This document shows positions 4,548 through 63,508 of a stretch of 64,000 nucleotides of DNA, in pieces (within the stretch, counting starts at the first letter, position 1; every line of letters starts with the position of its first letter). The stretch comes from Leucoraja erinacea (lineage: Eukaryota), in the NCBI RefSeq assembly GCF_028641065.1, contig NC_073383.1:36642001-36706000 (forward strand), given 5' to 3'. The notes beneath the pieces were generated by a model, which saw only the letters and a list, made by a program, of their open reading frames with translations, was not told where the DNA came from and did no database searches. A program made the position numbers and the translations under genes.

Positions 4548-4950
4548 AGGTGGCAGAGTAGACAGCTACTTGAGTTGCTGCCTCATAGCTCCAGCGATCC
4601 AGGTTCAATCCTGACCTCTGGTGCTGTTCATTGTAATTTGTATGTTCTCTACTGCGTGGGGTTCCTCCTAGTGCTCCAGAGACATGCTAACTTGAAGGTT
4701 AATTGCCCACTGTAAAATGTCATGAATGTTTAGCGAATGGTAAAATCTGCAGAGAATGAAAATGGCTTGCTTGATGATTGCCACAGACTCAGTGGGCTGA
4801 AGATAGACACAAAATGCTGGAGTAATTGAGTGGGACAGGTAGCATCTCTGGAGAGAAGGAATGGGTGGTGTTTCGGGTCGAGACCCTTCTTCAGACTTCT
4901 TCAGACAGTGGGCTGAAGAGTCAGTTTCATTGCGATCTGACTCTATGACC
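4548..4950 (+). mobile_element. HE1-like tRNA-derived V-SINE, interrupted by a Penelope unit at 4801-4905
   Basis: tRNA-like head (ttgctgcctcatagctccagcgatccaggttcaatcc) and V-core. The flank cagtgggctgaaga is duplicated around the insert. Confidence 0.75.
4801..4905 (-). mobile_element. Short Penelope-derived unit with a hammerhead-like core
   Basis: Reverse complement reads ctgaagaagggtctcgacccgaaacacc...ccagagatgct...ccagcattttgtgtct. Confidence 0.75.
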
Positions 4951-5754
4951 AGGTCAACATGAGTAACATGAAAAAATAGGGTGACGACCCCAGCATAGAG
5001 GTGGTGTAGGGAGACTTCCTGCTGCCACAGAAGGTAGTTCTTAGATTGAGCAGTATTACTCCTGAGTTGTCACAAAAACAAAAGGTGTATGTGTTTAGCT
5101 CTATTGGCTCACTTTTAAAAACATTTTCAGTTTTAACTGTAAATCGTGCTGAGGTACATTTTCACGGTATCCACAGTTCTCAGATTGCTTTATCCAAGTA
5201 ACTGATTTTTATATACCTGTAAACAGCTAGCACCAGTGGGTTAGACATCACAGTCTATTTTGAAGTCCTGCTTTGTCCTAATGTCTGTACAATTCTGTAA
5301 AGTAGTCATTGGGTAATGGTTGAGATTGGTTGCCTAGTCTGGGTGTTCTCACCCTCTTCCGGTAAGGATATGGCGATCAACTACAGAGCTGCAAATTCCC
5401 CGTGAAAGATCGCTCACACCAACTTGTTCAATAAGGCAGCTCCCTGTACGTTTCACATTAATGTGTCAACTAGAAAGAAGAAGCATGAATACTTAATACT
5501 CATCTTAATTGAAATAAGGAGAGTAAAATAATTAAATTCAATGCAGCAATTAATTTATTTTAATTTGCTGTGTTTACACTTAGGCTTAATCTTAGGAGCA
5601 TGTCTGAACACACCAGACAAATCTAATTTCAGAAAAGGACCAAATGAGCTTACTATTAAAGGAATTGCAAGGAAGAAAGTTTTACTGATAAAAATGAATA
5701 AAACTGTCAGGGACTATCTCAAAAGTCAAGAATGACTATTCATCAGGTTTGGAC

Positions 5755-5960
5755 AGGGTGCCACAGTGTTGCAGCTGGAGGAGCAGCTGCCTCATAGATC
5801 CAGTGAACGGGTTCACACCTCATCTCGAGTGCCATCTGTGTGGAGTTTGCATGTTCTCCCTGTACCTGCGTGGGTTTCCCCCTTGGTACTCCAGTTTTCA
5901 CCCAAATCCCAAAGGAGTGCAGGATGATAAGTTTATTGGCTGCTTCAAGTTGCACTAACA
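5755..5960 (+). mobile_element. HE1-like SINE
   Basis: A/B-box-like head and V-core tgtgtggagtttgcatgttctccctgt...gcgtgggtttcc. Confidence 0.75.
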
Positions 5961-8110
5961 TGAAGGTTGCACAAAAAGGTACCCCGTGGAAGTGAAGGTT
6001 ATAGGAATCAAGTGAAAACTCTCCAGTGGGAGGAATGGTATCTGGGACATCAGGATGTCGTTATAAGTGAAGAGCAATCAACACACACAACTTTCCTCAG
6101 ACTGTAATACTTCATCAATAACCTTTCCTCCGCGATAAAGCCAGAATTGGGACTGTTCACTGACTGCATGATTCCCAGTTCTGCGTTGTTTTGCTTTAAA
6201 CATCTCTTCAGCATTTATTGGCATCATCATCACCCAGTTCCTCAACATCAGTACTTTGGGTGACCAATAACCCACCTGCCCCAGTCATGTAAATGTGACA
6301 AATGTTTAAACCCACCAGTCATGGATTTCAAGAGACTGTAGCAACTTGATAAAGCAATTCATTTCAAAGATGCCTTATTCACCAGCCTAGACATGCAAAC
6401 TTTCATCTTAAGCAAACAATGGATGTTGCATGAGTGGCTGGCATTTTGCACAACTGCAAGCTGTCTTCAGCAGGCTCTCGCCATCTAGAAGAACAAGGGC
6501 AGACTATGGTGCAATAAGAACAAGATCATTTGGTTACCCCTGTAAGTCGCTACTATTCTGACCTGAACATACTTTGGTACTCTATTGATCTGTCGGGTCA
6601 AACTCAATGCCAACAACCCTGTGTAAGCATTTACACTGCAAAAAACTACAGCTGGGCTGGAACTTGCCATCACCCCTTTCAAGATAATGAGAAATTGCCA
6701 CCCTAGATAGCAATGTTCATAGCTGAGGAAATTATTATTTTTAATCCATCTTTCTTCTTCCGGTCCCTTGCTCTCCCTTCCCTTTCCCTCTTTCCCCAGA
6801 GGCATGAATTGATACTTTTGACTAATCACATACTTAATGAAACCGGTCATGTAGAATAAGTTAGGCAATAATGTATGATTTCACTAACCACGTTATAATG
6901 AATATTCTGAAACTAATACTATTAAATACTTTACAGCAAAGTCATTGGTTCTATTATGACTCAATGAAGTGTACATCGTTTCTCTGGAGGGCATATAAAT
7001 TGATGTTAAAATTTGGAAATGAATTTGCAATGCACTTATCAAATCAGTGACCACCCTCCTCATTAAATTGCTAAAGGTCAGTAACTCCCACTCCAGAATT
7101 AGTCACAGAATGATATCGCTGAAAAGTGAGCTCTCTGAGGCTTCACTAAACAGTGTGGGGCAAGAAGTGGTATTGAAGCAACTCGCCCGTTTTGAAATGG
7201 TAACAAGAACTGAATACACCAGTTGTATCAATGCATTGGTATGAGCATGGGTGAGGCTGCATTTCATTCTTTGATATGTGATCAAGCATTGGTGTTACAT
7301 TCAGCTCACAATCCTTAACTGCAGTTTGCAAAGCTGTATCACGAGGCTGTGAGGTATCCAAAAAGCTTACATAAACCAAAATAATCCTGTTACCATCCAT
7401 CAATCCTTAAATCGATTGGATCACATTTAGTCACTAAGTAGCGATTAACAATGGAACTAATGGTAAAAGCCTTCCTCGCAGAGCATCATTAACTATTTGG
7501 AGAATAATCCATTGCCAAAAGGGGGAAAAGAGGTGGCTTTTTAGTGGAGGATAATTTTAAATTGATTTCCAGTCGAGTTAGTATGAATCTAATGACAGCT
7601 CCTTTGTGAAATTTTATGTAATCAAAGACATAGCAAATTATTGCCTGCAAGTAGGCCAGTTAATCAAAAAAATCACCACATCACTGCAGAGACAGAAAAT
7701 CCTTAAAGTCATAATTATTTAATGCGGAGAACTTAATTTTTTCTCAGCTTTCCTTTTCATATGCAATTCTATCAGATCTTGATATGCACGGGAATAAACA
7801 ACATAGAGCTTTGGTTAAAAAATAACTGTGAGCCAAGGGGGTAGCTGGTGATAAACCGGCTTCATCTGCACCCAAAACGGATGCTCAAACATGAAAATGT
7901 TGTGTGAAAATCATGGCAGACGAACTGAGACATGGGATGCACATTGGTCATTCATATTATTAATGCGTCAGCTCATGACCAGAGTACTGATAGCATAGTC
8001 TGTGCTAATTGAGTAAGGACATTAACCTTACCTCAAGGATAGACCAAGAGGTAAAATCTTTAAAAAGAGATTCCAGCATTTTATTAAGTATAGAGTTAGA
8101 ATAACGAGGG

Positions 8111-8200
8111 CAGACACAAAATGCTGTAGTAACGCAGCGGGACAGGCAGCATCTCTGGAGAGAAGGAATGGGTGATGTTTCGGGTCGAGACCCTTCTTCG
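8111..8200 (-). mobile_element. Short Penelope-derived unit
   Basis: gacacaaaatgctg...gtttcgggtcgagacccttcttc. Confidence 0.75.
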
Positions 8201-9319
8201 GAATAACAAGGGACCTTGTTTTCTTGCTTTAATTTTGTGTAATCAGGAAGGAAATTTGTACTAGCTTCACAGAATTAAATTGCGAATGGTACCAAGAAAT
8301 TGCACAAGCTTTATCGCTCAGACTAAAGGACATTTGGCCTAATTGGCTTTTGCTGTTCACTCTTCTCACTGTGGTCCAAACTAGAAGAAACTAAAATGAT
8401 TCCAGTACTTGAAGCAAGCCTTGTCATGTCAATCGCATGCTCTTCTCCCGTTCTCTATCCACGGCCACTCGCATACATAGCTGTATCATGTGGGGCTCCC
8501 ATGTCTTCATGCTCCTGCCCAAGAATAGTGGTTAAATAGCTACAGCCTTCTGGGCAACTTGGGTGCTGTATGATTCTATGTCTTCCACGGGGGCAGGGGG
8601 AGGGGTTGGGGTGTGTGAAGTTGTGTCGGGGATGGCAGCATCAATAGCATGTTTAGTAAATGCATTGGAATTACAAGCCTCAATCTAATTTAATATCTGA
8701 AAATGGGCCTGCAGTGCAATCTCTGTCAATGTCAATGCCGTATTGAGAGCTCTGATTTTAACTCTTTCACTAACTCTGCATTCTGTGTGACTGTGATCAT
8801 GTGGCCATTTGATCTGTAATCTTTTACAATCACCTCTCCCTGCATCTCCTACCATCAGCTTGACAGGATCGCCCTTGCTTGATTGTACATCTCTAGCAAC
8901 AGTTTTTTGATGAATGTTCCCAGCATCTAGGCCCAATGTCTTTATTTCTAAGCTGGTATATGAGCCACAGTCCCAGTAATTATGGAAATGTTGGAGGGAA
9001 TGGGAGAACAGGTGCAGCGGCAAGCAACCTCAGACATGCAATCATTAAATATTTATCGTCCAGAAGGAGGCCATTTGGTCCATTATGTCTGGGCAAGTCA
9101 ATCGAGAATTTCCAGGCTGAGCTCATCTTACATCACTGGATCTGTTGCCCTGCTTGTCACATCTCTTGTAGAGCACTATAACTGAAAAGGTTTTCTTCCT
9201 CTCCCACCTTTTCAGGTTGAAGTTTGCGGCACCACTACCTCTGTGGTGAAATAATTATTCTCCTCTCATTATTCCCCTCTTAACTCTCCTCTAATCCTTC
9301 TACCAGCATCTCCATATCA

Positions 9320-11349: not shown

Positions 11350-12669
11350 TTTTCTAATTCATTTTTATTTGAAGCAATTGTACAAGGATAAGACGATCAG
11401 CATAACAATTATACAATTATTGTACAGCTTTTTATTGACCATTAACTTATTCATAAACTTAATAAACCTAACTTAATTCATTGACTTAATCATTGACTTA
11501 TTCATAAACTTAAACTAGAAATAGTGGAGATATACAGAGTTTAGACCATGGACAGTCCGATTCAGATGGAGTTGGACAAACAGAATCAGAGGTGAAAGTG
11601 CAAAACTGGTGGCATGCTCTTTTTGACAGGTATCTCGCCCTACTCTGAAGAAGGATCCCAATCCAAAACATCATTTGTCCATTTCCCTTCACTGATGCTG
11701 CCTGACCTGTTGAATTCCATTAGTAGTTTGTTTATTCACCCAAGATTGCAGCATCTGCAATCTTGTGTCTCCATGGGAATAATGATGATTGCTTTCATCT
11801 TCCTAATGCTGAATTGTAGGAAGTTTAGACTCATCCAAGACTTGATGTTGGATAAATAACAACCAAAGGTGGACAATTGTCCACTACCTTAAAGGGGGGA
11901 TAATAGCTTATATAGGAGGATGTGGAACATTTTGCTCCAGTCAAGTGCTCTTTGTCCTGGTCCATATCATGTAGGATGTAAGAAATAATTTCTAATTTTT
12001 ATGGAATGAAGCTATAGCTACAGGTGAGTTCATGTATTTTGTTCATTTTTTAAAAGATACATTATAAGTGTCCAGTCTATACACATTAAATAATTAAGGT
12101 GAATCTAGGACTCACTTGGAGCATTTTCCAACCCCTATGCTATTTAACAGCTCAACAACTTAATTGTATTCTGACATTTTTTTACTACTTATGTTGAGTT
12201 GAGTGATCATCTAATTTACAGAAAGTGCAATGAAAACTTCACCAAGCGGGAAAAGGCAGGCCTGCGTTGCCACACAGCCTCCAGGACCCTGCATGCATGT
12301 GGCACCCGTTCCCCCATTCTGTGTTGATCATTTCAAACTTTGTCCTGCCAACTGCAAACATTCATGGACAGACATCCCTAGCCCTTCCCATCGTCCCCTC
12401 TGATGTTTAATTTAAAGTACTTGTTACATTTCTGGACAAAGCAAACCTCTTCACACTAGATTGATTAGATTTCATGTCACATGCCGGTCCATATCTACAA
12501 TTATACTGTGATCTCCTACTATTCTCCTCATTGGTTATGACAGTTTGAAGTTTGATGTCATCTGGAAACTTTGAAATTTTACTTTTCACATCTGTCCAGT
12601 CTTTAATAGGCATCAAAAAGAGCACTGACCTTAAAATAAACATATTTCACTGGAGTCTTTGATGTTCCT

Positions 12670-12945: not shown

Positions 12946-12967
12946 ACAAAAATTTACCCCAAAAACT

Positions 12968-13097
12968 TTAGTCTGAAGAAGGGTCTCGACCCGAAACATC
13001 ACCTATTCCTTTTCTCCAGATAAGCTGACTGACCCGCTGAGTTACTCCAGCTTTTTGTGTCTTATCTTTGGTTTAAACCAACTTCTGCAGTTCCTAC
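12968..13097 (+). mobile_element. Short Penelope-derived unit starting at a hammerhead-like core
   Basis: CTGAAGA-A-GGGTCTCGACCC-GAAACATC at 12973-13000, followed by the shared downstream sequence. Confidence 0.75.
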
Positions 13098-13179
13098 AAA
13101 TTTACACCAGGAGTCTCTGGAGTGGAACTGTGAGCTTTCAACCTTCCGATTCACAAGCAAAGGAGTTACTAAGTGAAGT

Positions 13180-13640
13180 CACAAGACTGCAGGAGCTGTA
13201 ATCTTGAACAAAAAAACCCCAAACAAACTGCTGGAGGAACTCAGCAGGTCAGGCAGCATCTATGGAGGGAAGTGGTTTGACAATATTTCGGGTTGGGACC
13301 CTTCTTCAGACTGCTGGAACAGAGGTGAATGGGTGGAAGAAAGAGGTATCTAGCAGCGTAAAGAGGGTTGGCCCAAATTTGTATGCAGTCTATCTTCTGA
13401 CCCATCACTAACCTTGCCACTTAGAGAGAGACAGAGTGGTCTAGCAATAAGGAGGCACCCACATGAAAATGATTTAGAAGTGTTCAGTCAGCGAAGGTCT
13501 TCAGGACTCCAAACTGAAGAAGGGTTCCAACCGAAACGCCTTCTATCCATTTCCCTCCACAGATACTGCCTGGCCCACTGAGTTCCTCCAGCACTTCCTT
13601 TTTTTGCTTAAGAAGCCTGCCTCCCCAGTCCCCTGCATTT
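13180..13640. mobile_element. Inverted pair of Penelope-like terminal repeats around a ~190-bp spacer
   Basis: 13228-13312 (ctgctggaggaactcagcaggtcaggcagcatctatggaggg) is reverse-complementary to 13513-13594. Confidence 0.7.
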
Positions 13641-17881: not shown

Positions 17882-18975
17882 CTAGGAAGGATCGCGAGCG
17901 CTAGTATGGGTGTTGTGGGCTGAAGGGACTGCTTTCCAGTGGGCTAGTGTGGACATTGTGAGCCAAATGGATTCTTGGGCTGGCGGCTCAGTCACTCAAG
18001 CCTGTTGTGCTGGCATCTCACTCACTCACGGCTGGTGGGCTGGCAGTTGACTCACGGCTATTCCTTGAAATTCCATTTCAAGCAGGGTGCAAGGCTACCA
18101 AATTCAAGTGCAGTTTCATACCACTTCAAGCAGGGTGCAAGGCCACCAAATTCGAGTGCAGTTTCATACCACTTCAAGCAGGGTGCAAGGCCACCAAATT
18201 CAATTACAGTTTCATTCCATTTCAAAGACAGGGCAAGGCCACAAAAGACAGCGAGTCGTGACCTCTTGCTACCCCATCTTGCAGAGACCGAGCCATGCCC
18301 ACATTTCTGGGTTTTATACTCCCTCCCCCACACACCAGAAAGGGCATGGCCTGCATGGCGTGATTGACAGGAGAGAGAATCTCAACATTTTTTAAACACT
18401 AATAACTCTTTTATTTTTCATAAATGGGAAAAATCCTCGGCACCTGATGAGCGGATGGGGACTCTGAGTAAGATGGCCAAAAATAACAGCCGTACGTGGC
18501 AGCTTTAGTATTTTCAAACCAAAGGCAAGGGAGCTTTAGCATTTTCAAACCAAAGGCAACACAGCTTTAGGATTTTCATTTTCAAACTACATTTTCAAAC
18601 CACATTAAGGGCACTGACAGGTCAGTAAAACCACTCACAGTTTAGTAGACATGTGTTCAGTGTTATTCACAGCTCAGACTGAGAATCGCGACCTCTCGCT
18701 CCCCCATCTTGCAGAGAACTGAGGCAGCTCCACCCTTATGGGTTTTATAGTCCCTCCCGAAGGTGTGTGGCCTTCAGGAGAGAGAATCTCAACATTTTTT
18801 AAACATTAATAAGTATTTTATTATTCATCTATGGGAAAAATCCTCTTGTCTTGACCAGTGGCAGGGGACTCTGGGTAAGATGGCCAAAAATCACAGGTGT
18901 AAGTGGCAGCGTTTTTTCTAAAATCAATATGCAGTGCAACAGGAAGTGGTCAAGATGAGACTTTAATAATATAGA
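17882..18975 (-). mobile_element. Non-autonomous Helitron-like element
   Basis: Minus strand begins TCTATATTATTAAAGTCTCATCTTGACC and ends CTAG; sits between host A and T with no TSD. Homologous to 62555-63097. Confidence 0.7.
18072..18245. repeat. 48-bp minisatellite (~3.5 copies) inside the Helitron-like element
   Basis: Unit ccacttcaagcagggtgcaaggccaccaaattcgagtgcagtttcata. Confidence 0.9.
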
Positions 18976-20167: not shown

Positions 20168-20440
20168 ACTGCTGGAGAAACTCAGCGGGTGTGGCAACAT
20201 CTATGGAGTGAAGGAATAGGTGACGTTTCGGATCGAGACCTTTCTTCAGACTGATGTGAGGTAGGGAGGGAGCAGGAAGAAGAAAGGAAGAGGCGGAGAC
20301 AGTGGGCTCTGGGAGAGCTGGGAAGGGGAGAGAATGGAGGGAGAAAGCAACGACTACCTGAAAGTGGAGAAGTCAATGTTCATACCGCTGGGGTGTAAAC
20401 TACCCAAGCGAAATATGAGGCGCTGCTCCTCCAATTTTTG
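20168..20440 (-). mobile_element. Penelope-like element 3' fragment with an intact hammerhead-like core
   Basis: Minus strand reads KLEEQRLIFRLGSLHPSGMNIDF (GIY-YIG C-terminus); core CTGAAGA..GAAACGTC at 20222-20249. Confidence 0.85.
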
Positions 20441-21120: not shown

Positions 21121-21590
21121 CAAATGGAGCTTCATCGGTAGCGGTGGAGCCTCGCCTGTGGCGGTGGAGCCTCGCTTGTGGCGGTGGAGCCTCGCATGTG
21201 GCGGTGGAGCCTCGCTTGTGGCGGTGGAGCCTCGGTTGTGGCGGTGGAGCCTCGGTTGTGGCGGTGGAATCTCGGTTGCGGTGGTGGAGCCTTGGTGGTA
21301 ATGGTGAAGCCTTGGTGGTAATGGTGAAGCCTTGATGGTGAAGCTTCGCGGATTGACCCGCGGTCGATGTGGGGATTGAGTGTGGGGAGGACTGCTGTGA
21401 GGGAGGGGGAAGAACAATGGACAATGGAGGACCTTGCGTGCGGGAACCACTGGGGGGGGGGAGAACAAAGGAGGAGCCAACGTACTTCGTAAGTGTCAGT
21501 GCTGTAGGTGGCTGCTATTTGTATACCTTGGGTATGCAAGCAAAAATAATCACTGTGCCTTGTTGTATGTGACAATAAAGTATTCCACTC
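21121..21590 (+). mobile_element. Retroposon 3' part containing a 20-bp minisatellite and a Rex-type tail
   Basis: About 11 units of gcggtggagcctcgcttgtg (21121-21345); tail tcactgtgccttg..tgtgacaataaag. Confidence 0.6.
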
Positions 21591-29990: not shown

Positions 29991-31436
29991 TGCTTTACAG
30001 TAAAAGGCAAACTGCTGGAGGAACTTAGTGGGTTAAATAGCATGCGCAGAGGCAGAGGTGATGGTTGGCATTGCTGGTCAAACCCCTGGATGAGGACTGA
30101 AGGTGTAGAACAGAGATGGCCAGCGTGAAAATGTGAGGGGGAAGGTAGGAGATGACAGTGAATAGGTGAAGCCAAGTGAGGAAGGGGATGATGGGCAGTA
30201 GGGACCAGATGGGGGAGGGGGGGTGGTGGAGGTAGAAACGGAGGCTTGAAATCAATCAGTGGAGGTGAAAGAGGGATGTAGATATGAGAATCTGATGAGG
30301 AAGTTGATACCTCTCTGTAATTTTTTGGTGAGAGTTTGTTGTTATATGTATTGGCCCCTGAATTATCCACTATTTTCTTGATGTACTCTGGTGTGAAGAC
30401 AGACAGTTCCTTATCCCCATTTTAAATCCGTTCATCTTGGAGTTAAAGGGACCGATGTCCCTCACTTGTTTATTTTCAAATTAAATTTCTCTTTTTATAC
30501 CCTTTGCTGATTTCTGAAACATTTCCAATTGGCTTTGTTCTTTCTCCGATAACTTTATGCCTTTTTCTAAGATTTAATACTCTCTTTAATTTTTCCTGCA
30601 GCCCCCAGATGGAGCATCTGTTCGATTGTGCCTCTGCGGCTTAAAGAAATATATATTTGTTGCAAAACATATTTTTTCCTGATTTCTATAAAGATTACAT
30701 GGGATATCTGCTACTTTGCTGCACCTACGGGAGATCTAATATATCAATGAGAACGAACCAGGCATTTATGATACTTCCCTGGCTGTGGCTTAGCAGAAGA
30801 GAACTTCCTTTGCAACCTTTAACACATTAAATAAATATTTCCACAGAAATAAATGGGGTCAAGGATAAATATGAAACCAAAATCATTAAGATTAACTGTT
30901 TGATGCACAGCCTCTAAAACAACATGTGATCCAATATTAATGTTATCACGCAGTAACGTGACTATTTCTGTAGATGTTCCTACATAAATCTTCAGCTATA
31001 TTACAAACAGGTAAGTTGCAAAGTCTTTCCCTCAGGCAGGACATTCTTGTAAGGGAATTTAGCTCTTTGCCTGGATATTCACCTGAGTCATTAATGACTT
31101 ACATTTGCCCTCAAGAGATTCTGTAACGGATTATGTTCTGGGTGGAATGTGCATTTTACCTGGATTGCATGGCTTTAGAAATTCAATTTGAAGAAGCTTA
31201 ATTTACAGAATATGTTTGCAAATGCTAATTACAATTTTATGGTATTAGTTTTCATAGAAGCCATCATCATGTAAGTTCTCTGGTTTCATCTCTTTTCCTT
31301 TCAAATAAAATCAGCTTCTTAAACTTGTTTTACATGCCAATTTTAAAATACTAGCCATTGTTTGTGAATCTGTTCGTGCCTCACTCTGGTTCCCCACAAT
31401 AGTTTTTGCAACCTTTTTGTTTGTGAGAAGCTCCTG

Positions 31437-34949: not shown

Positions 34950-35280
34950 GCTGCCAATGCCCGTGAGCATTGGGGCCGGTTGGAGCGGCTTCAGGAGCAG
35001 CCGCGAGTGGCCAGTGCCCATGTGCATTGGAGCCGGTTGGAGCGGCTGGGAGCAGGGAACAAGAGCAGCCACGACAACCAGTGCCCGTGAGCATTGGAGC
35101 CGGTTGGAGCGGCTGTAGGAACTGGAGCAGGAGCGGCTTCAGGAACAGCCGCGACGGCCAGTGCCCGTGAGCATTAGAGCCGGTTGGAGCGGCTGCAGGA
35201 AATGGAGCAGGAGCGGCTTCAAGAGCAGCCGCGACGGCCAGTGCCCGTGAGCATTGTAGCCGGTTGGAGCGGCTGTTGGA
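34950..35280 (+). repeat. Tandem repeat (57-80-bp units, ~5 copies) in the DIRS gag-like region
   Basis: Repeated gccagtgcccgtgagcattggagccggttggagcggct. Confidence 0.9.
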
Positions 35281-37965: not shown

Positions 37966-40149
37966 GCCCATTTTAATCGGCGGGCCACACTAGCTTCAAA
38001 GTCATCCTGTTGAGTCTCATTGTCTGTAACTTGGTTTCACATAGCCCACAGCAAACAATGACCTAATCATTGTTACTATTTTGCATAGCTTTCATTCAGT
38101 TGTTCTATATCTCTCTATATCACCATCTATATCTCTCTTATCCCTTTCCCCTGACTCTCAGTCTGAAGAAGAATCTCAACCTGAAACTATCCTATTCCTT
38201 TTTTCCAGAGATGCTTCTGACCCGATGATTTACTCCAGCTTTTTGTGTCTCTCTCCCACTTTAATCTCCCTGCATTTCCATCAGCTCACCACTGTGCTGC
38301 TAAATGGTGAACTAATGCGCTTCTGGGATGGGGACTAGCATTCAACCTATCAATGAGGATGATTCTTACGTACCCTCTGGTCTGACATTGCTGTTTGCCT
38401 GAAGAGCAATTGAGCATTGAACATGACTGCCTTGGACCGTCCTGGATAATTAACATTATCTTTGATAAAATGGATTTTGTTAAACGTTTTTTGTAAGAAG
38501 TATTGTGTACAGTTTGGTTTTCTCACCTGTGAAAGTTGTAGCAAACCAAAAACGATATCAATGAATTATTTACTAATTAGTTGTTATCAAGCCAAAACAA
38601 ACAATCCTCCTTCAACTGGGAATATGTAACAGCAGAGTGGAAAGGAATACGGGACCTAATGCAAATTTAGCAATGTTATACCATAGCTTTACCTGCATCA
38701 AAAGGAGGAGGTTGCAGCCAAAGGTCAAACAAGGATTAAAGCGGATTGAATCTCCGTTACTTCTTCCAGTTAAAGGAGGTTGTACACAACCAGAAAATGA
38801 AGTGAGGGAGATGGAGACGTGATCTTGCTCAGCTATCACTCTGCCAGTCTGGGAAAGCAAATTGAAGTCAAAGTGTTTGTTAGCTTCTTTGTCAAAAGCA
38901 TCCTGACTTATTTTATATGAATTGAAACTGAAACACTGTTTTCCTCAGTTTAAGAAAAGTGCAGATACCCATGGTCGTCTGATCAGCATTCATACTGAGC
39001 AAAGACAAGGGTTTGTAGCAGAAAACTGAAAGATAATCAATTATATTTCAGTTGTCACTTATGATGAAGGGTCTGAAGCTGAAACATGAGGCAGGCCCTG
39101 CTCTTGGCAGATGTTGTGCATTTCCCAGCATCTTCTGTTTTATCTTCAGACTCCCAGCATTTGGAGTCTTTTAATTTGAAATAAACGGAGCTGTCAGTGT
39201 TACTTGCAGTTCACCATGTTCCCGAGAGTTATTATGCTACTCCTTAAAATCCAATCCAAACAGCACAATATTTGGTTTGCAGACCCTATTATTCATCTGT
39301 GCTGAAATACAAGGAGTATAATGGCTGTGATTGTTCAGAGAAAAGAGAGTAGCAATAAGAATCAGGTAGAGGAGTTTGCCATCTGGCCCTTCGATCCCAG
39401 CTTGCATTCATAATGATTCATCTTTAACCATAACTCCATGAAAATATAGGCTGCTGTTACTAGTTTAGTGTATGGAGACATTCAGCACAAAGCCAAGCCC
39501 TTCAGCAAACCAGGTCCTTGTGAACCATCAAGCACTATTTACTCTAATGCCACTTAATTCTCCCCACATTCAATTCAGGTCCTCCCAGTTTCTACCAAAC
39601 CACCTATAGACTTAGGGCAATTTTCAGCAACCAGTTGACCTACCAGCCCTTGGAATGTGCAAGGAAACTGGAGCAGCCAGAGAACTCGGATCACTGGATG
39701 AGTGAGGCAGCAGCAATAATAATTATGCCACCGTGTTGCCCAAGATTTTATGGTGGACAAGAGTCCTCTTATAGATCACAAAGAACTTGAACATTCCCAT
39801 CAATGGACTCAGAGGCCATATGCGTGTTGCCACAACTCTCAACACAAGATAAAAAAGGACCATTCCCACAGTCCTGTGAATGGATCTGATGCTGCTGATC
39901 TCTTTGACCTGCACCACCAGCAGTCGTTGAGCTTTGTTTCAGTGAGACATGAAGAACAGAGTGGCGCAGCTGGTAGAGCTGCTACCTTACGGTGACAGAG
40001 ACCTTATGTTTGATCCTGACCTCGGAAGTTGCTTATGTGGTGTTTGCATGTTCTCCCTGTGAACTAAAAACTAAACTAAACTAAACTGCTAAACTATTTC
40101 AGGAATGTCAGGATTAGCCTAGTCTGCACATCCTAGGGTTGGCTGCCAG

Positions 40150-42691: not shown

Positions 42692-44617
42692 GAGACAATA
42701 GACAATGGACAATAGACAATCGGTGCAGGAGTAGGCCATTCGGCCCTTCGAGCCAGCACCTCCATTCAATGTGATCATGGCTGATCATCCACAATCAGTA
42801 CCCCGTTCCTGCCTTCTCCCCATATCCCCTGACTTTGCTACCTTTAATAGCCCTATCTAGCACTCTCTTCAAAGTATCCAGAGAACCGGCCTCCACCTGA
42901 GGCAGAGAATTCCACACTCACAACTCTCTATGTGAAAAAATGTTTCCTCACCTCCGTTCTAAATGGCTTACCATTTATTCTTAAACTGTGACCCCTGGTT
43001 CTGAACTACCCCAACATCGGGAACATGTTCCCTGCCTCTAGCGTGTCTAAACCCTTAATAGTCTTATATGTTTCAATAAGAACCCCTCTCATCCTTCTAA
43101 ATTCCAGAGTATACAAGTCCAGCCGCTCCATTCTCTCAGCATATGACAGTCCCGCCATCCCGGGACTTAACCTTGTAAACCTACGCTGCACTCCTTCAAT
43201 AGCAAGAATGTTCTTCCTCAAATTAGGGGAGCAAAACTGCACACAATACTCCAGGTGTGCTCTCACTGGGCGCCGGTACAACTGCAGAAGGACCTCTTTG
43301 CTCCTATACTCAACTCCTCTTGTTATGAAGGCCAACATGCCATTCGCTTCCTTCACTGCCTGCTGTACCTGTATGCTTACCTTAATTGGCTGATGAACAA
43401 GGACCCCCAGATCCCGTTGTACTTCCCCTTTTCCCAACTTGACACGATTTAGAAAATAATCTGCCTTCCTGTTTTTGCTACCGAAGTGGATAACGTCACA
43501 TTTCTCCACATTAAACTGCATCTGCCTTGCATCTGCCCACTCACCCAACCAGTCCAAATCACCCTGCATTCTCATAGCATCCTCCTCACAGTTCACACTG
43601 CCACCCAGCTTTGTGTCATCTGCAAATTTGCTAATGTTACTTTGAATCCCTTCATTTAAATCATTGATGTATATTGTAAATAGCTGCGGTCCCAGCACCG
43701 AGCCTTGCAGTACCCCACTAGTCACTGCCTGCCATACTGAAAGGGACCCGTTAATCCCTACACTTTGTTTCCTGTCTGCCAACCAATTTTCTATCCATGT
43801 CAACATTCTACCCCCAATACCATGTGGCCTACATTTGCCCACATATCTCCTATGTGGGACCTTATCAAATACTTTCTTAAAGTTCAGGTACACTACATCC
43901 ATTGGCTCTCCCTTGTCCATTTTCTTAGTTACATCCTCAAAAAATGACATAAGATTAGTCAAGCATGATTTCCCCTTCGTAATTCCATGCTGACTCGGAC
44001 CGATCCTGTTGCTGCTATCCAAATGTGCCGCTATTTCATCTTTTATGAGTTGGATGATCAGCCATGATCATATTGAATGGCGGTGCAGGCTCAAAGGGCT
44101 GAATAGCCTACTCCTGCACCTATTTTCTATGTTTCTATGATTGTCTCCAGCATCTTCCCCACCACCAATGTCAGGCTATCTGGTCTATAATTCCCTGTTT
44201 TCTCCCTTCCGCCTTTCTTTAAAAAATGGGTTAACATTATCTACCCTCCAATCCACAGGAACTGATTCTGAATCTATAGAACATTGGAAAATGATCACCA
44301 ATGCGTCCACGATTTCTAGAGCCACTTCCTGTGATGCAGACCATCAGGCCCTGGGGATTTATCAGCCTTTAGTCCATTCAGTCTACCCAACACCATTTCC
44401 TGCCTAATGTGGATTTCCTTCAGTTCCTCTGTCACCCAGATCCTCTGGCGACTAACATCAGGAAGATTGTTTGTATCCTCCTTAATGAAGACACATCTAA
44501 AGTACCTGTTCAACTCATCTGCCATTTCCTTGTTCCCGATAATAAATTCACCTTTTTCAGTCTTCAAGGGTCCAACTTTGGTCTTAACTAATATTTTCCT
44601 CTTCACATACCTAAAGA
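42692..44617 (-). mobile_element. CR1 LINE, 5'-truncated (~1.9 kb), with a tiny opposite-strand CR1 tail nested at ~44048-44139
   Basis: Long RT ORF, 3' UTR and (tctattg)n tail; the nested piece is flanked by tatga. Confidence 0.95.
43006..44022 (-). pseudogene. CR1 reverse transcriptase domain, 338-aa open segment without endonuclease
   Basis: QHGI..SCLTNL, YLNFKKVFDKVPH, GVLQGSVLGP, KFADDTKL. Confidence 0.9.
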
Positions 44618-45157
44618 GAGTTGTGATCTAACAGAGGTGGTCATGCTGATGAACACTGTGCATAATGCTTATGCTTCCTATCAGATTATTCTATCCTGCC
44701 AAGGGACGGCCACAATGATCAGCAACACGTAAATCCTGCACGTATTTTTAACTGTTTGGAATATTAAAAAGAACAAACAGTTAGTGTCAGTATAGAGTCT
44801 GTGTTTTCAATCATTGTAATTATCTATAATCAGTCTTAAGCTCTTTGAACTGTGTATTTCTTCAGTCATTGACTTATATTTGGTCAGCCCAGTTTCTCCA
44901 AAATACCAACAAAGCTCTGTGGGGTGTATTTTCTTTTCAATTTACACCATCTGAACTTCTCTAGCATAATAACAGCGCACGGCAGGGGAGCTTTTCTGAC
45001 AGCCAAGGCACTCTGATTGCACCCTCCCCAATGATCAGTTGTGTAATTAGTTCCACTTCCGAGATTAAAGCACTTGAGCATTATCGGGAGAATGCTGTAC
45101 AATCAGAGACACTACCTTTTAGTTCATACATGTATCCAATGCCCTATTGGACCTAAG

Positions 45158-45372
45158 ATAGACACAAAATGCTGGAGCAACTCAGCGGGACAGGCAACAT
45201 CCCTGGATAGAAGGAATGCTTGATGTTTCGGGTCGAGACCCTTCTTCAGATCAGTCTCGACCCGAAACGTCACCCATTCCTTCTATCCAGAGATGCTGCT
45301 TGTCCCGCTGAGTTACTCCAGCATTTTGTGTCTATTTTCGGTTTAAACCAGCATCTGCAGTTCCTTCCTACA
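45158..45372. mobile_element. Palindromic Penelope-derived element
   Basis: 82-bp arms 45158-45239 and 45254-45335 around a 14-bp spacer. Confidence 0.85.
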
Positions 45373-54985: not shown

Positions 54986-55789
54986 AACAGGAATCTGAGA
55001 GGTAGCTTTTTCACACAAAGGGTGGTGGGTGTATGGAACGAGCTGCCAGAGGAGATAGTTAAGGCTGGGATGATCCTAATCTTTAAGAGACATTTGGACA
55101 CGTACATGGATAGGACAGGTTTAGATGGATATTGTTCTTTAGTAACATGTCAGTTTCTTTGTTGAACTAAATTAAGGCGCATGTTGCAATCAAAACGCTT
55201 GAACAATTGGTTGGGAAACTGTAAGAAAGAGGACTGCATGTGAGTGGGACTAGTGTAGATGGGACATGTTGATCGGTGTGGGCAAGGAGCTAAAGGACCT
55301 GTTTCCACACTGCATCACTCTATGACTAAAAATTTAAGAAGTAAAATGCATGTAGATAAGTAGAGCAGACTTGAAAAGGAGTGAAATGTAAAGACAGAGA
55401 GAGGTTTATAGGTGGAAAGGAACATAGGAAAGGAGGGAGGAGGGTGGGTTTAGGAAAATAGACACAAAGTGCTGGAGTAGCTCAGTGGGTCAGGCAGCAT
55501 CTGTGGAGAACATGGATAGGTGACATGTCACAGTGCTGGAGTAACTCAGTGGGTCAGGCAGTATCTCTGGAGAAAAGGTATAGATTATATTTCTGGTCAA
55601 GACCCTACTTCAGTAATATGCATGATGTGACATGATGCATGTTACCCAAACCATCGTGAGTTACTTTGTGATGGTGCTTGTATCTCCTATAATGTTTCTG
55701 CTGCCTTGGGTGATGCAGGACAGGACACGAGCTTTGGGACATGGTGTGAAGCTGTTGCAGTCTGTCCCAGCCTGGTAAAAGCCTGGATT

Positions 55790-56490
55790 AAGTGGATATG
55801 GAGAGGATGTTCCACTAGTGGGAGAGTCTAGGACCAGTGGCCACAGCCTCAGAATTAAAAGACGTTCCTTTAGGAAGGAGATGTGCAGGAATTTCTTGTC
55901 AGAGGGTGGTGAACTGTGGAATTCATTGCCACAGACAGCTGTGGAGGCTAAGTCAGTGGACATTTTTCAGGAGGAGATTGATAGATTCTTGATTGATACG
56001 GGTGTCAGAGGTAATGGGGGGAAGGCAGAAGAATGGGTTTGAGAGGGAAAGATAGATAATCATAGAGTGGTACAGTGTGGAAACAGGCCCTTCGGCCCAG
56101 CATGTCCCATCTACACTAGTCACACCTGCGCACGTTTGATCCATACCCCTCCAAATCTGTCCTATCCATGTACTTGTCTAACTGTCTCTTAAATGTTGCG
56201 ATAGTCCCTGCCTCAATTACCTCCTCTGGCAGCTTGTTCCATACACCTACCACCCTTTGTGTGAAAAATATACCCCTCATATTCCTATTAAATCTTTTCC
56301 CCTTCATCTTAAACTTAGGTTAGGTTTGGAGGGGCATGGTAGTTAGGTAGGTACATGGATAGGACAGGTTTGGAGGGATATGGACCAAAAGCAGGCAAGT
56401 GGAACTAGTGTGCTGGGACATTGTTAGCCGGTGTGGGCAAGTTGGGCCAAAGGGCCTGTTTCCACAATGTATCACTCTATGACTATCCAT
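55790..56490. mobile_element. Cluster of CR1 3' ends: 55790-56050 (+), 56060-56315 (-), 56348-56485 (+)
   Basis: WNSLPQTAVEA and FFTQRVVGVWNKLPEEV translations with CR1 tails. Confidence 0.8.
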
Positions 56491-56537
56491 GTTCTCCAGA
56501 GATGCTGCCTGACCCGCTGCGGCAGATTGTGCGGAGG

Positions 56538-58087: not shown

Positions 58088-58089
58088 TC

Positions 58090-58945
58090 TTCTCAGCTCT
58101 TTATCGATTAGGCAATCGGCTTGACGCACATTAGGGGTGGGGGGGAGAGTCAAGGGTCTGCGGCGGGGGGAGAGGCAAGGATCCACGGCACGGGGGGGGA
58201 GAGGTGAGGGTCTGCGGCGGTAGAGGCGAGGGTTCGCAGCGGGGGGGGAAGAAAAGCGTGGGCCCAGCGGGAGTGGGGGGTGGCGTGGGCCCAGCGGGGA
58301 GGGAAAAGAAAGGCATGGGCCCGGTAGGAGTGGGGGTGTGGCATAGGACCAGCATAGTGGGCCCGGTAGGAGTGGGGGTGTGGCATAGGGGGGTGGGAGG
58401 GGTGGTGTCATGAGCCCAGTGGCGGGGGAAGTGAAGGCCAGGCCGGAGCGGAGTCTGGTGTCGAGGTTACGGCCACTGCCAATCATTCCCACTCCCACCT
58501 GGCGATGGGAGAATAGTCTCCTGTTAGACCCCTCGCGGGTAGCTTGCTACCCAGGATAAAAACCAGACTGTAGTGAAATATTGCCTCCCGCAACGCAATA
58601 TTTCACTACTTATGCAGAGTAGACATGAGGCATCGAGGCGATCGCTGACTGTGTGCACGGCAAAATGCAATCTGATGCCGCCCGGGCCCACTGCGCACGC
58701 GTGGAAAGACAGCGTCATTTTGAGTCGCTACTGTGTCACCGGCTTCCCCCAACTGTGCAGGCGCGGATGGTCAAAATAATATTTTTTCCCAAATCATCCA
58801 GCAGGCTGGAACCAGAATTTCGGGTAAACGCTGATTGCACTACAATTTTTTTTTTCTCTGGATGTTTTTCTTACTGTGGGAAAAAAAGGGGGGTGCGAGT
58901 GTACCCCCAATGCCCCCCCCCCCCCCCCCCCCTTCGACGGCCATG
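58090..58945 (-). mobile_element. GC-rich non-coding repeat, probably a non-autonomous DNA transposon fragment
   Basis: CpG-rich, with G-run tandem units; terminus reverse-complements to catggccgtcgaagggg. Confidence 0.4.
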
Positions 58946-60723
58946 TTATGAGCTGAAGGAGGTCCAGCCTAACAGCTCAACTGCAAATGCATCCAACGTG
59001 GGGACTCCTACAGCCATGTCGGAGACCTCAACCCTTTTCCAACCTTAAAGGCAGAAGTGCACACCCAACCCACTACACTGTCCCCAAATTCTGCTTAAGC
59101 AAATTGCAAAATTCCCTCAAATAGCAAAATCGAGGGAAACTTTTATTCAAACATTGAACTTGCAATCAAACTCATTTGTTTTTACAAATAATAAACGTGT
59201 TAGATTCAAATGTCATGAGGTGTTTATTCTTAATTGGAACTTACAATGAAATGCAGAATTTCACCTGCCAGTCATCATTGAACTACAAATGTGAATGTTG
59301 TAATTAGATTCCCCAAATCATTTGAAAGTATTTCTATTATCATTGCACTAAAAAGCATATTTTTATTTACAAAAATAATTATTTGTTTCTTTTATTGGTG
59401 TTCTTGATTATATTCCATTGTTCATTGTGAATCTCTGAAAAAAATCTGATGTTTTTTTATCTCAGCAACGTAAAATGTATTAAAGTTTGTAACCACATTC
59501 TACATTTCATTTGTTCTGCAGTTTGTTTATCTTCTACATCTGTATTGCTTTTCGCTTCAAATATTATTTGAAATATGTATATATCATTTGATATATTATG
59601 GCTAGAACAAAAAGGATCTTCTAAAGAGATATAGAAAAAATAGAAAATATGTCCCTTAGTCCATCAAACTGTCTGAGCTTCAATGAGATGACAACAAATA
59701 TGAGAGTTGATCCCTTTCATCTCGCAACCGAGAAATCAGAGAATCTACAACAAACTCCAATAATCCAGTGTGTGATTGTCTGGGAATCCCAAAGGCACAG
59801 TCCGAATCATTGTGTTTAGTTTCCCACATTCTCTTTACATTCATCGGTTTCTGTTTTATTTAAACAAAATGAGACCCCGTTTCTCACTGTCCCTTTAAGC
59901 ACACCAAGGCCTCTTTCCTTGTGATCTCTACAGAGGCCCCATTTCCCATGGTCCCATTAAACACACTAGAACCCCATTTCCCGCTTTCTTTAAACTCACT
60001 GGAGCCCTATTTTCAGAACTTCCTTTCAAGCCCACTAACATCCTGTTTCCAATGCACTCTTTAAACTCACCAGGAAGAATGGGAAATCTACAATATTGCC
60101 ATGCAACATCTAAAAATAAATCAATTAAAGGTATTAATAGGTGTAACATCCAATATTCTAGAAAATCTGCTGGTTCAGCACCACCAAAGTCCTGGGGGAG
60201 TTGGTTTATTGTTTTCTTGTAATTAGGTTGATTATTTTCTCAGCAGTTTGTGGTTTAAATATGGTGTGGATCATTTCCGTGTTAAGCATCCAGCTATCCA
60301 ATCACAAAATCAATGCTCTTATTATCATTGCCTTGTCACAGATTTAAGTGTTCATAGAATGAATGCTTTGCTGTTTTCCCTTGAAAGCCATTCCCTATTT
60401 CCTTTGGCAGCCACTTCTTCGCGCAAATATCTCCAGCATGAATAGAGATCCCATTGAGATTTTCGCTGTCCAGCTTATGTCAGAATCATTTTATTGTCAG
60501 AATGTTACAGTTAAGGACTGTCTTTTAACTCCATTTAAATTGTTTATGTTTTTTTAACTATCCTTTGCTGTCTTTGTGACTGAGTTGGAACATGTAGATT
60601 AATAGAACCAAAGGAGCCAGAAGATAAGGTGTAACAATCTTATTGTTCTGCTAGCGGGACACGTGTGCAGAAATGCCAGACATAACATTTTATTAAACAG
60701 CATAATGTAACTAGTTTGACTTA

Positions 60724-61262
60724 AACCCCTTTTTCACGGGGCGACTTGACGCAAGAGTTAACCAGAGTTGAACATCGTGGGAACCTCTTGCGATAACCGT
60801 ACGGCATTCGTGGACCACCGTGTACCACCGTGGCGCTAACAGCAGGTACTCGTGTAACTTGGTGACTCGGGAGAAAATTCAAACAAGCTTGAATTTCTCC
60901 AAGAGCGATTGTACACTTGTGGTTGAACATTGCAACATTATATGCACGTAGAGGCCAGTGCGATATCCGTACTGACTCTTGCGTGTACCGTGGGAACTCC
61001 TGCGAATGGTGAACCCGGAAGCTGGACAGAGGGGACAGAAGGTGAGTAAAAATTGTCTTCTGTGGGATTGAATTTAAAAAATAAAGATTTGCATCCGCAT
61101 ATGTACATCAACTTATTCATGAGTTATGTTAATGAGATTCAAGAAAATAACTATAATCTTTAAAAGGGACTTTACTGAAAGGTCCCGCATTTTTATGGTC
61201 CGTGAGAAATTTTTCACTTGTACTTCTTTGAGAGATACAGCTCGGAGTCCTCGCCGACCAGC
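60724..61262. mobile_element. Harbinger-like MITE fragment
   Basis: TTA followed by aacccctttttcacggggcgact, resembling the 32790 terminus; CpG-rich; other end not found. Confidence 0.5.
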
Positions 61263-61363
61263 GATCGATGCCTTTCCGAAGCAGGGTCCGGAACGCTACC
61301 AATCAATGTTCTCCAGAGACCCGTGTAAAGGAGTGAACTGCACATGCTGGTTTAAAACGAAGA

Positions 61364-61680
61364 CAGACACAAAAAGCTGGAGTAACTCAGCGAGTCAAGC
61401 AGCATCTCTGGAGAAAAATAGGTGATGTTTCGGGACGAGACACATCTTCAGACTCAATTCCGATTAGAATGTCTGAAGAAGGGTTACGATTCGAATCGCC
61501 ACCTATACTTTTTCTCCAGAGATGCTGCCTGACACGCTGACTTACTCCAGCTTGTTATGTTTTTCTTCCCAGATCTAACTTACCTGCTGAGTTACACCAA
61601 CATTTTGTGTCCGTGTTCACTATGAACGTTGAATTATTTAATTTTAGGTAACTTACACTCTCTCTCTCTCTCTCTCCCCC

Positions 61681-61734
<54 letters not shown>

Positions 61735-62115
61735 ATGCTCCCCCCCCCCCATGCAGTAAATGTCGGTTAACCAGTCCAAGGTTGGCAACGCTGGTTCCCT
61801 CTTGGGATCACACTATCCCTAGCCAACAATTGGCCTATCAGGGAACCAAATATGGACATAAAGTGCTGGAGTGACTCAATGGGTCAGGCAGCATCTCTGG
61901 AGGAAAGGGTTAGGCGACATTTCGGGTCGGGACCCCTCTTCAAAATACCCTGCTGAGGTAATCTGTTGTTGGCCCTGATTTGTCCCGGTCTTTTCTTGCT
62001 TCCAGTTCCCCCCTACAATCATCCCGAAGAAGGGTCCCGACGAAAAATAGAATCTATTCCTTTTCTCCAGAGATGCTGCTTGGCCCGCTGAGTTACTCCA
62101 GCATTTTGTGTCTAA
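61364..62115. mobile_element. Two palindromic Penelope-derived elements (61364-61560, 61855-62115) flanking a poly-C run
   Basis: Each has an antisense arm ending ..cttca and a sense arm starting (ct)gaagaagggt. Confidence 0.75.
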
Positions 62116-62554
62116 CTTGCTGATTCAGACAGTTTTTGATTTACTCTGAAACACACGTTGGAAATTTAAACTTGGGCGCAACTAACATCGTCTTACTACT
62201 GTGGGAACTCTTTAACTCAGCGGGCAGGCAGCAGTTAATTGTTGCTCCCTTCAGTTTCCCAGGGGGTTGGGACGGGACTGGAGTTGGGAGGGAAAGGTGG
62301 GGGAGTCGAGGGAGAGGAGGGGGAGACAGATGGGGGTGTCTTCATTTACTGGTGGTGGGTGTCTGTCACTGAAACAGGCAGGTGACAGACACCCGCTGCC
62401 AGTAAATGAAGACTTCAGTCTGATTTTAATCGATTCCACATCTTATTTGATGTTTTTGATGTTATAATTGGACCAGCATTTATGCTTTACAGCTTTACAG
62501 CCAGTTAATATTTTGCTCCTTCCAGGATAGTTTACCACTGCTAATTAACATATA

Positions 62555-63097
62555 TCTATATAATTAAAAATCTCATCTTGACCACTTCCTGTCTGCACTG
62601 TATATTGATTTTAGAAAACGCTGCCCTGTATCGCTGTGATTTTTGGCCATCTTACTCATAGTCTTCCTCCGCTGAGCCAGCCCCAAGGATTTTTCCCATC
62701 GATGAAAAATAAAAAAGATTATGAGTGTTTAAAAAACCATGAGATCAGCTGATTGGTCCTTTCACCTGTCAATCACCGCAATTAAGGTAACGCCTCTTCT
62801 GAGTGGGGGGTGGGGGGAGCAGGACTATAAAACCCCAGATGCCTGGACGTGAGTCAGTCACTCTGCAAGATCGTGAGGGAGAGGCCACGACTGTCATTCT
62901 AATCTGTGAATCAACTGAACTGTGAGTCTGCAATATACTTGCAATAAATTATTTGTTAGCCCTTAACGACAATGCCATGAGTTGTTTGGCCTCCTGCCCT
63001 GCCTGTGCTTGAAAGTGCAAATTTTAATTGGAAATGAAATTAAATGAAATGACAATGGCATGAGTTGTTTGGCCTGCTGCCCTGCCTGTGTTTGGAA
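62555..63097 (+). mobile_element. Helitron-like element, 5' part
   Basis: A|TCTATATAATTAAAAATCTCATCTTGACCACTTCCTG; homologous to 18975 leftwards. Confidence 0.7.
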
Positions 63098-63104
63098 GGT
63101 AAAT

Positions 63105-63508
63105 AAAAACACTGGAGAAACTAAGCAGGTGCGGCAGAATCTATGGAGCGAAGGAATAGGCGACGTTTCGGGCCAAGAACCTTCTTCAGTGATGTGGGGG
63201 CGGTGGGGGCTGGACGAAGAAAGGAAGAGGCGGAGACAGTGGGCTGTGGGAGAGCTGGAAAGGGGAGGGGGAAGAGGGAGAAAGCAAGGACTACCTGAAA
63301 TTGGAGGCCAATGTTCATACAGCTGGGTTGTAAACTACCCAAGCAAAATGTGAGGTGCTGCTCCGCCAATTTGCAGTGGGACTCACTCTGGCCATGGATG
63401 AGGCCCAGGACAGAAAGTTTAGATTCGGAATGGGAGGGAGAGTTGAGGTGCTGAGCAACCGGGAGATCAGGTTGGTTATTGCGAACTGAGCAGGAGGACC
63501 GGAAGGCA
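63105..63508 (-). mobile_element. Penelope-like element: GIY-YIG C-terminus plus terminal repeat
   Basis: PDLPVAQHLNSPSHS..KLAEQHLTFCLGSLQPSCMNI; core CTGAAGA..GAAACGTC at ~63162-63189. Confidence 0.88.

Follow-up and report, generated by a model that had tools for sequence, protein, structure and literature searches.

Short hammerhead-bearing copies of Penelope-like elements in a skate genome share a 5′ edge just ahead of the ribozyme core

How do short repeats with a hammerhead ribozyme motif come to be scattered over a genome? This question is raised by a stretch of 64,000 nucleotides from Leucoraja erinacea (assembly GCF_028641065.1, contig NC_073383.1, positions 36,642,001 to 36,706,000 of the forward strand), in the following called the window. 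It holds dispersed repeats of ~100–130 letters, here called units, which are built around a minimal hammerhead core. The original prediction for this locus derived twelve such places from Penelope retroelements, proposed that they are bounded by the ribozyme and supposed that they may be mobilised on their own. All 12 of the 12 places hold the motif on the strand given for them, the coordinates being those of the CTGA or of a position near the GTC. From the analysis presented here the units are very probably by-products of the copying of autonomous Penelope-like elements (PLEs), and more than half of the young copies begin at a common edge just before the hammerhead core.

A profile trained on 94 genomic copies was run on the window and on 100 evenly spaced 10-kb stretches of the genome (1.0 Mb). 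It matched 21 times in the window and 359 times in the sampled stretches, whereas the reversed sequences of both gave 0 matches; extrapolation to the 2.19-Gb genome yields ~780,000 copies. A 31-letter word of one young family has 54,369 exact matches in the genome and its reversed control has 0. Positions within the unit are counted on the element's strand with the C of CTGA as 0, and the predicted hammerhead cut lies after +27 (GAAAC-GTC or GAAAC-GTT). The ends of young copies were read at the first 100 occurrences of the 31-letter word along contig C1, the upstream sequence being ignored in the choice. Two duplicate rows from the overlapping loci L244/L245 had been removed (102 to 100), and L243 and L246 were retained though they are apparently one segmental duplicate. 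A second set comprises 200 copies of all families with an intact CTGA and at most three substitutions, which excludes ends inside the core.

With an intact genomic open reading frame (ORF) in tblastn searches, the C-terminus of a Penelope GIY-YIG endonuclease was recovered at the two places of the window where it had been read ahead of the motif (20440–20360, E 4e-9; 63489–63304, E 3e-21). A GIY-YIG fragment used as query gave 150 scored genomic places, several of them within open frames of 750–1190 aa. The frame at locus L171 comprises 1193 aa and matches RVT_1 with E 3e-6, below the curated cut-off. Its linker reads CNRRRCNTC, and LIY..YIG near the C-terminus was recognised directly in the sequence; Pfam gave no GIY-YIG match in this frame. 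Reverse transcriptase (RT) and C-terminal GIY-YIG thus share a single ORF with a linker of the form CX2-5CxxC. Partial tandem pseudo-LTRs (pLTRs), an inverted 5′ copy, a tail of 30–40 nt and target-site duplications (TSDs) are all present, as expected of the endonuclease-bearing (EN+) Neptune type. Judged by its linker motif, the parent is an endonuclease-bearing PLE of Neptune type. In the ORF at L171:3075-6653 the N-terminal domain is separated from the RT by a long insert (~aa 110–460) that is rich in Pro/Ala/Gly and contains short repeats; with it the full protein has ~1,270 aa.

The unit is found on both sides of this ORF. In 13 of 29 fetched copies of the ORF N-terminus the unit immediately precedes the ORF, whose ATG lies at +164, 164 nt after the CTGA. 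In two main and two or three smaller families the unit lies 115–330 nt after the stop codon. The sequences upstream of the unit fall into more than 10 groups, of which the larger ones reach GIY-YIG coding sequence within the same 115–330 nt in 53/55, 44/47, 9/20, 5/13 and 2/5 copies (targeted searches had enriched the first two of these groups). Because the unit occurs both after the GIY-YIG stop codon and before the ATG across families, it is a shared segment of the pLTR, namely the common conserved part of the pLTRs of several families with the 3′ untranslated region (UTR) on one side and the 5′ UTR on the other. The proposed Penelope origin is thereby confirmed: the unit is part of the pLTR of elements with RT and GIY-YIG domains.

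The majority sequences of the five families with at least five members read YCAGT, CTGAAGA, A, a 4-bp stem II, GAAAC, GT(C/T) and (A/G)CC, and agree with the minimal type I core of CUGANGA, stem II and GAAA that had been proposed. They also show the extra base, G10.1–C11.1 in stem II, the palindromic 15.2–16.2 and the NUH of the minimal hammerheads (min-HHRs), and the position in the pLTR after the GIY-YIG stop and before the ATG is that of a min-HHR. Helix I, however, has only 2 bp (GU/AC or GU/GC) instead of 4–5 bp, like the D. virilis variant. YCAGT is the majority in all five families; farther upstream the sequence diverges. The families differ in loop II, by U-A to U-G exchanges in stem II and stem I, and by C17 to U17, with the fold kept in all. 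Between the family majorities of this genome, which alone was compared, there was no two-sided change in stem II; among single copies a two-sided A-U at stem II pair 3 occurs in 5 of 234.

The inserted copies are mostly decayed. The catalytic CG in GAAACGTC is retained in 105 of 234 copies (CA in 53, TG in 33), as the suggested CpG decay would have it, and the CG of loop II in 107 of 234. A search for hammerheads, recommended along with the prediction, gave nothing in Rfam at E<=5, the minimal motif falling short of the Rfam models. A loose descriptor of an intact hammerhead was matched by just 1 of 21 copies in the window and by 25 of 358 in the sampled stretches. Since the catalytic and the loop CpG decay equally and so few copies are intact, selection does not maintain the units as ribozymes once they are inserted. 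In silico the lowest-energy fold of the monomeric 5′ UTR differs from the hammerhead (z −0.54).

Were the unit bounded by ribozyme cleavage, its ends should tell. The predicted cut lies after +27, and cut RNA would therefore start at +28, without CTGA..GAAAC. This position lies 28 nt inside the unit, and none of the 100 young 5′ ends falls on it as against 55 in −7..+7. The original prediction was right in that the 5′ ends of the young copies are not random: per base 7.0% of the copies are lost in −7..+7 and 0.08–0.4% upstream of it. The 55 ends come from 83 copies at risk, and 28 of the 100 copies extend farther upstream. Random 5′ truncation was rejected on account of this peak. Farther inside, 11 of 100 copies end at +8..+11, 7 of these being inverted joints whose position is blurred by the stem II palindrome, none of the 94 copies at risk ends at +12..+27, and 6 of 100 end at +28..+37 (none at +28; 3 of the 6 are inverted joints).

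The cluster is thus ~30 nt ahead of the predicted cut, and its copies go back to RNA that had not been cut. A retrozyme-like unit, with the ends of the mobile RNA set by cleavage, is thus hardly credible; for most copies it is refuted by the 55 of 100 ends upstream of the cut, and it could hold for a minority at best. Whole-unit arrays are rare and the 3′ ends lie 65–100 nt downstream of the cut, which speaks against it as well. In its favor may be counted the retention of the core across families, the 6 of 100 young ends in +29..+37 as compared to 0 in +12..+27, and a copy of the ORF start (L194) that begins exactly at +28, as expected from RNA that was cut and remained unligated.

The 3′ ends are also ordered. 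Of the 100 young copies 60 end at or before +100, 37 at or after +120 and 3 in between, which defines two sites ~35 nt apart (sites 1 and 2). A TSD of at least 7 bp (7–15 bp) flanks 33 of 41 solo young copies, compared with 5.5% of mismatched flanks. The duplicated flank which had been noticed at the first listed copy is of this kind: the solo unit at 4804..4905 (−), with its CTGA at 4894, lies between 14-bp duplicates at 4790..4803 on its 3′ side and 4906..4919 on its 5′ side. Its 3′ end is at site 1 and its 5′ end carries an 11-nt repeat of its own first bases; such repeats of the first bases are also present at L129 and L278.

Do the solo copies form a lineage of their own? The 200 intact-core copies of all families comprise 91 solo, 66 long and 43 inverted ones, and every body variant contains members of all three kinds. 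In a nearest-neighbor test of the 91 solo against the 66 long copies the value was 0.569 compared with 0.579 in permutations (p 0.56), i.e., solo copies are no closer to one another than to long copies. By this comparison of sequences the solo copies are no separate lineage, and the idea that a mini-element is mobilised on its own as a lineage was not upheld. The same result bears on a SINE-like (short interspersed element) origin, a non-autonomous element with its own promoter and priming sites that is re-mobilised in trans from solo copies. The fixed ends, the TSDs, the ~780,000 copies and a putative promoter inside the unit would suit such an element, and one young-family variant has 12 short and 2 long copies, a bias that is not significant. 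Besides the missing lineage, the catalytic and loop CpGs decay alike, and on reading the 100 young copies we noticed neither a poly(A) tail nor captured sequence from a 3′ flank. The anole enzyme moreover requires RNA downstream of its start sites, and this part is absent from solo copies (PMC11167929, as far as available). We consider a SINE-like origin very unlikely.

Neighbors within 50 bp among 358 copies are arranged head-to-head in 56 cases, tail-to-tail in 4 and in tandem in 12, the latter mostly partial duplications. Because of this head-to-head bias and the rarity of tandems the copies are not a retrozyme-type array, for which tandem units with a whole type I hammerhead are expected. 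Within a pair the two arms resemble each other more than randomly chosen arms do (0.81 vs 0.74). Fold-back copying of one arm from the other was considered and found unsupported: the partner was the closest copy in just one of 50 pairs, a comparison that is blurred by decay after the insertion.

A different picture emerged from copies that contain the start of the ORF. All 13 of 13 ORF-start copies reaching the CTGA continue upstream for 127 to >1,127 nt, each with a different endpoint where one is visible. None of these 13 ends in −7..+7 as compared to 55 of 83 young copies (Fisher p 4e-6). A pause of the RT intrinsic to the sequence is disfavored by these copies: a built-in pause would act on both passes, and since 0 of 13 halt at the edge, it is more probable that one class of template ends there. 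About a third of the copies and all 13 ORF-start copies pass the edge in register and would therefore come from a template without that end.

A single template would suffice if a strong-stop and transfer mechanism like that of retroviruses were at work. All cDNAs would reach the RNA 5′ end, about a third would be transferred by homology to the 3′ pLTR of that RNA, and the rest would be inserted short. Jumps from the 5′ edge to other places are indeed observed. Two thirds of the cDNAs should, however, stop again on their second arrival at the edge, and 0 of 13 did so (p 4e-6). Unless the 13 copies had tandem donors or a second jump succeeds much more often than the first, this makes the mechanism quite unlikely in our view. 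Head-to-tail joints lead from site 1, site 2 or the ORF start (+190–200) to −4..0 at L311, L084, L087 and L309, the joint of L184 lying farther upstream. ORF-start pieces that end at about +185 to +200 were seen at L084:9317(+), L087:7441(−), L309, L184:3806(−) and L159; 4 of these 5 are joined to the front side of the hammerhead, and a third RT start or an RNA end near +200 is possible.

The explanation that we cautiously favor combines an internal start of the RT with run-off at an RNA 5′ end just before the CTGA. The RT-endonuclease of the element would nick the target and prime inside the RNA at ~+93 or ~+130. On an RNA that starts just before the CTGA and has not been cut by the ribozyme it would run off after 95–135 nt, and this product would be inserted. 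The 5′ end of such RNA would likely be the transcription start at the conserved initiator-like YCAGT. YCAGT presumably fits the initiator consensus, and CGTCA 28–32 nt downstream of its A has what we take to be the spacing of a downstream promoter element. Penelope of D. virilis is reported to have an internal promoter of the Inr/DPE (initiator/downstream promoter element) type with RGACGTGY (PMC2377424). The long, full-length and partial-tandem copies would derive from the template without that end. This could be a multimer originating from tandem arrays or a circle that hammerhead cutting and ligation had produced. A head-to-head pair would arise from two cDNAs, one primed on each strand of a single cut, whose 3′ ends are joined. 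Internal priming we infer by analogy to the anole enzyme described below, the RNA 5′ end and the promoter from the features of the copies just given.

Several points weigh against the run-off explanation. First, the edge is soft: the genome-wide exact counts fall with the 5′ extent of the pattern from 14,795 (0) to 9,545 (−3), 8,023 (−4) and 6,262 (−6), a loss per base of 13.6% (0 to −3), 15.9% (−3 to −4) and 11.7% (−4 to −6). With a shorter pattern the counts drop from 10,908 (−6) to 7,628 (−12), mutation included. A single sharp start at A(−3) was rejected, as by a hand estimate it predicts ~7,400 matches at −6 compared with the 6,262 found, and inverted joints explain at most 632; several starts, or a loss of end bases, must be assumed. 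Second, the samples are narrow. The young copies all lie within the first 4.6 Mb of a single contig; the 13 ORF-start copies, selected for their likeness to one young ORF, may go back to a small number of donor loci; and the TSD calls at L221, L271 and L294 are doubtful. Third, in D. virilis the transcript starts ~120 nt upstream of the hammerhead (PMC4209133, PMC2377424), and the 3′ end of an intron maps to the 5′ end of helix I (PMC4209133).

Three signs, on the other hand, fit a template end at the edge: the repeats of the first bases at 4894, L129 and L278, the head-to-tail joints to −4..0 given above, and the base immediately before the junction. This base was a G in 11 of 20 copies in a pre-planned test (10 of the 18 not previously seen; chance 0.26, p 0.005), and post hoc in 23 of 50 as compared to 13.7 expected. 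The excess is suggestive only because about half of the 11 cases have other explanations: three are inside the TSD, two belong to an inverted partner and a long copy with a point change accounts for one, so that about five look untemplated.

RNA data were of little help. A look-up with the query listed no RNA data set containing it. Four raw runs (X20–X23) had been chosen by species label; they are oligo-dT and single-cell libraries and possibly come from related species. Unit-bearing reads make up ~0.1% of all reads. In the two bulk runs both strands are equally represented and 94% of the reads continue into unlike sequence, as do 70% in the single-cell runs. The four runs gave no pile-up of read starts or ends at the unit, which again weighs on the negative side, the libraries being ill-suited and maybe of related species. 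The reads show passenger transcription and are silent on start site and cleavage. At L192:1700-2700 unit reads occur on both strands, some of them across head-to-head joints, and abundant fold-back RNA in host transcripts is possible.

The same by-products could also owe their 5′ edge to RNA processing or to a block. Either CAG/T would act as a 3′ splice site with a branch-like YTNAC immediately ahead of it, the RT halting at the branched intermediate, or 5′–3′ trimming would be halted at a protein-bound core. The families do show a pyrimidine tract followed by CTGAC/CTAAC/CTCAC, which we take for a branch site, and then CAG, and the soft edge reaches beyond −6. The distance between branch and AG would, however, be <10 nt, and the usual vertebrate distance is longer. 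Solo copies share no upstream exon, as host flank or TSD adjoins the junction, and an extra G is predicted by neither variant. The D. virilis intron that ends at the 5′ end of helix I (PMC4209133) speaks in favor of splicing. Taken together the two variants appear unlikely to us.

If both templates of the run-off explanation were real, they could be parts of a two-template Penelope cycle. Capped linear RNA would start at the hammerhead front edge, and priming near its 5′ end would yield only copies of 100–130 bp; cutting in both pLTRs and ligation would give a circle, on which priming would run through the junction to produce the long, full-length and partial-tandem copies. We put this forward as a tentative and on balance doubtful extension. 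Were it true, the pLTR would be regenerated by the hammerhead, and the minimal hammerheads scattered through many animal genomes would be traces left by run-off at the start sites of PLEs. How the pLTR is rebuilt and what the hammerhead does have been stated as open questions (PMC2377424, PMC8557442, in the parts available). In the skate the mechanism is recorded by a young family, whose near-identical copies number tens of thousands and show both ends at base resolution. The difference between the two thirds of first-pass copies and the 0 of 13 ORF-start copies that stop at the hammerhead front edge makes the question testable at the bench.

The remaining copies in the window illustrate these classes. 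Solo units lie at 8105..8201 (−), with the 3′ end at site 1, and at 12970..13095 (+), which begins with AGT (−3), has a tail and extends to site 2. Old units with a tail are those at 3515..3642 (−), which is decayed, at 11645..11770 (+), whose stem II of GGAT/ATCC is among the few two-sided changes, and at 13174..13348 (−), with the CTGA at 13309 and upstream homology of ~40 nt. Another old unit at 13514..13597 (+) is placed head-to-head to the latter at ~200 bp, maybe by chance. The weak match at 30005..30087 (−; E 0.0009) is heavily decayed and 56483..56521 (+) is an internal fragment. The two 5′-truncated Penelope ends consist of GIY-YIG C-terminus, 3′ UTR and hammerhead core: in 20169..20440 (−) CAGT precedes the core, the CTGA is at 20249 and the predicted cut after 20222, and in 63091..63497 (−) the CTGA is at 63189 and the predicted cut after 63162.

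Three close head-to-head pairs are present. In 45151..45369 the arms 45249–45151 (−) and 45254–45369 (+) reach site 1 and site 2, respectively; in 61329..61615 the units 61451 (−), with a tail, and 61473 (+) are 21 bp apart; and 61846..62118 holds 61942 (−) and 62025 (+). Two of the listed copies are not solo: 62025 (+) has 65–80 nt of upstream Penelope 3′ UTR attached, and the unit at 37986..38254 (+; CTGA at 38163) ~175 nt of upstream 3′ UTR from a second Penelope family.

The unit at 55455..55613 (−) is followed by a 66-bp internal tandem repeat and lies within a larger repeated segment. The 66-bp repeat derives from +19..+84 of the unit, with GAAACGTC present and CTGANGA absent, and is also found at L145, L035, L162, L147 and L072, several of these loci being unrelated, as a derived minisatellite-like sublineage. 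The longer segment with unit and repeat is common to window 55455-55790 (−), L072:7093-7887 and L147:6878-7725 at 80–87% identity; its ~170 nt upstream and at least 300 nt downstream are not recognisably Penelope, and it was spread either as a passenger or as a composite element. At L049, L060 and L178 (upstream group 7) a decayed unit sits inside another repeat and was copied with identical flanks on both sides.

Apart from the units, the window contains at 62337-62414 a near-perfect hairpin of 70–78 bp, possibly a small inverted-repeat element or a conserved hairpin; its microRNA-family scores are weak and far below gathering, and it had no match in the loci compared. At 43009-44067 (−) there is an open frame of 353 aa, which we take to resemble the RT of CR1/L2-type LINEs (long interspersed elements). 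Tandem repeats with periods of 30, 48, 31, 20 and 80 bp occupy 17975-18606, 21125-21339 and 35060-35280.

Much of what we describe has been published before: the element, the motif, the tail, the inverted pairs and the dispersed single hammerheads. A common 5′ edge, a run-off reading or the contrast between first and second pass was not found in the literature searched, outside of which lay Repbase and Dfam entries and most subscription journals. The min-HHRs of PLEs were reported with thousands of dispersed single motifs, read as truncated PLEs, and with opposite-strand pairs 100–700 bp apart (Cervera and De la Pena 2014, PMC4209133), and their cleavage is described as weak and confined to dimers or trimers (PMC4209133). 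The skate core resembles the metazoan PLE motif in CUGANGA, the extra base before stem II, G10.1–C11.1, GAAA and the palindromic 15.2–16.2. Its stem II has 4 bp, unlike the 7–8 bp of S. mansoni, and stem I has just 2 bp like the D. virilis variant (PMC4209133). The copy number in the skate is ~100-fold above the vertebrate counts given there, and a 5′ edge at the core common to single copies is a feature of the skate that the available part of that paper does not report.

Non-LTR retrozymes are likewise non-coding, bear hammerheads, come from PLE pLTRs and have dispersed monomers (Cervera and De la Pena 2020, PMC7229834; Li et al., bioRxiv 10.64898/2026.07.22.740005). In the available parts of these sources they form tandem units with whole hammerheads and circular RNAs, whereas the skate copies are single or head-to-head and not bounded by the cut.

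The anole Poseidon element was studied in vitro, where the RT has two internal start sites in AC-rich sequence that bound a 30–40 nt tail (Frangieh et al. 2024, PMC11167929); the two internal 3′ end sites of the skate copies match such RT starts. According to the same work the anole motif is cut only with protein, uncut RNA is the main insertion template, cutting is dispensable for insertion, and both target strands are cut and extended. Unlike Poseidon, whose ORF starts inside stem II, the skate element has its ATG at +164 and possesses the Cys linker. The 5′ ends of short genomic copies, treated here for the skate, are not a subject of that paper in its available part.

With the EN+ Neptune type the skate element shares the one ORF with RT and GIY-YIG, the CX2-5CxxC linker and partial tandems (Craig et al. 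2021, PMC8557442; Arkhipova et al. 2013, PMC3846280), and also the inverted 5′-truncated copy, the optional tail and TSDs, which measure 8–10 bp in those reports. Head-to-head repeats are ascribed there to self-priming on an antisense template. Solo pLTRs without TSD were attributed to recombination or deletion (PMC8557442, PMC3846280); most solo copies of the skate, in contrast, have a TSD of their own and a fixed 5′ edge.

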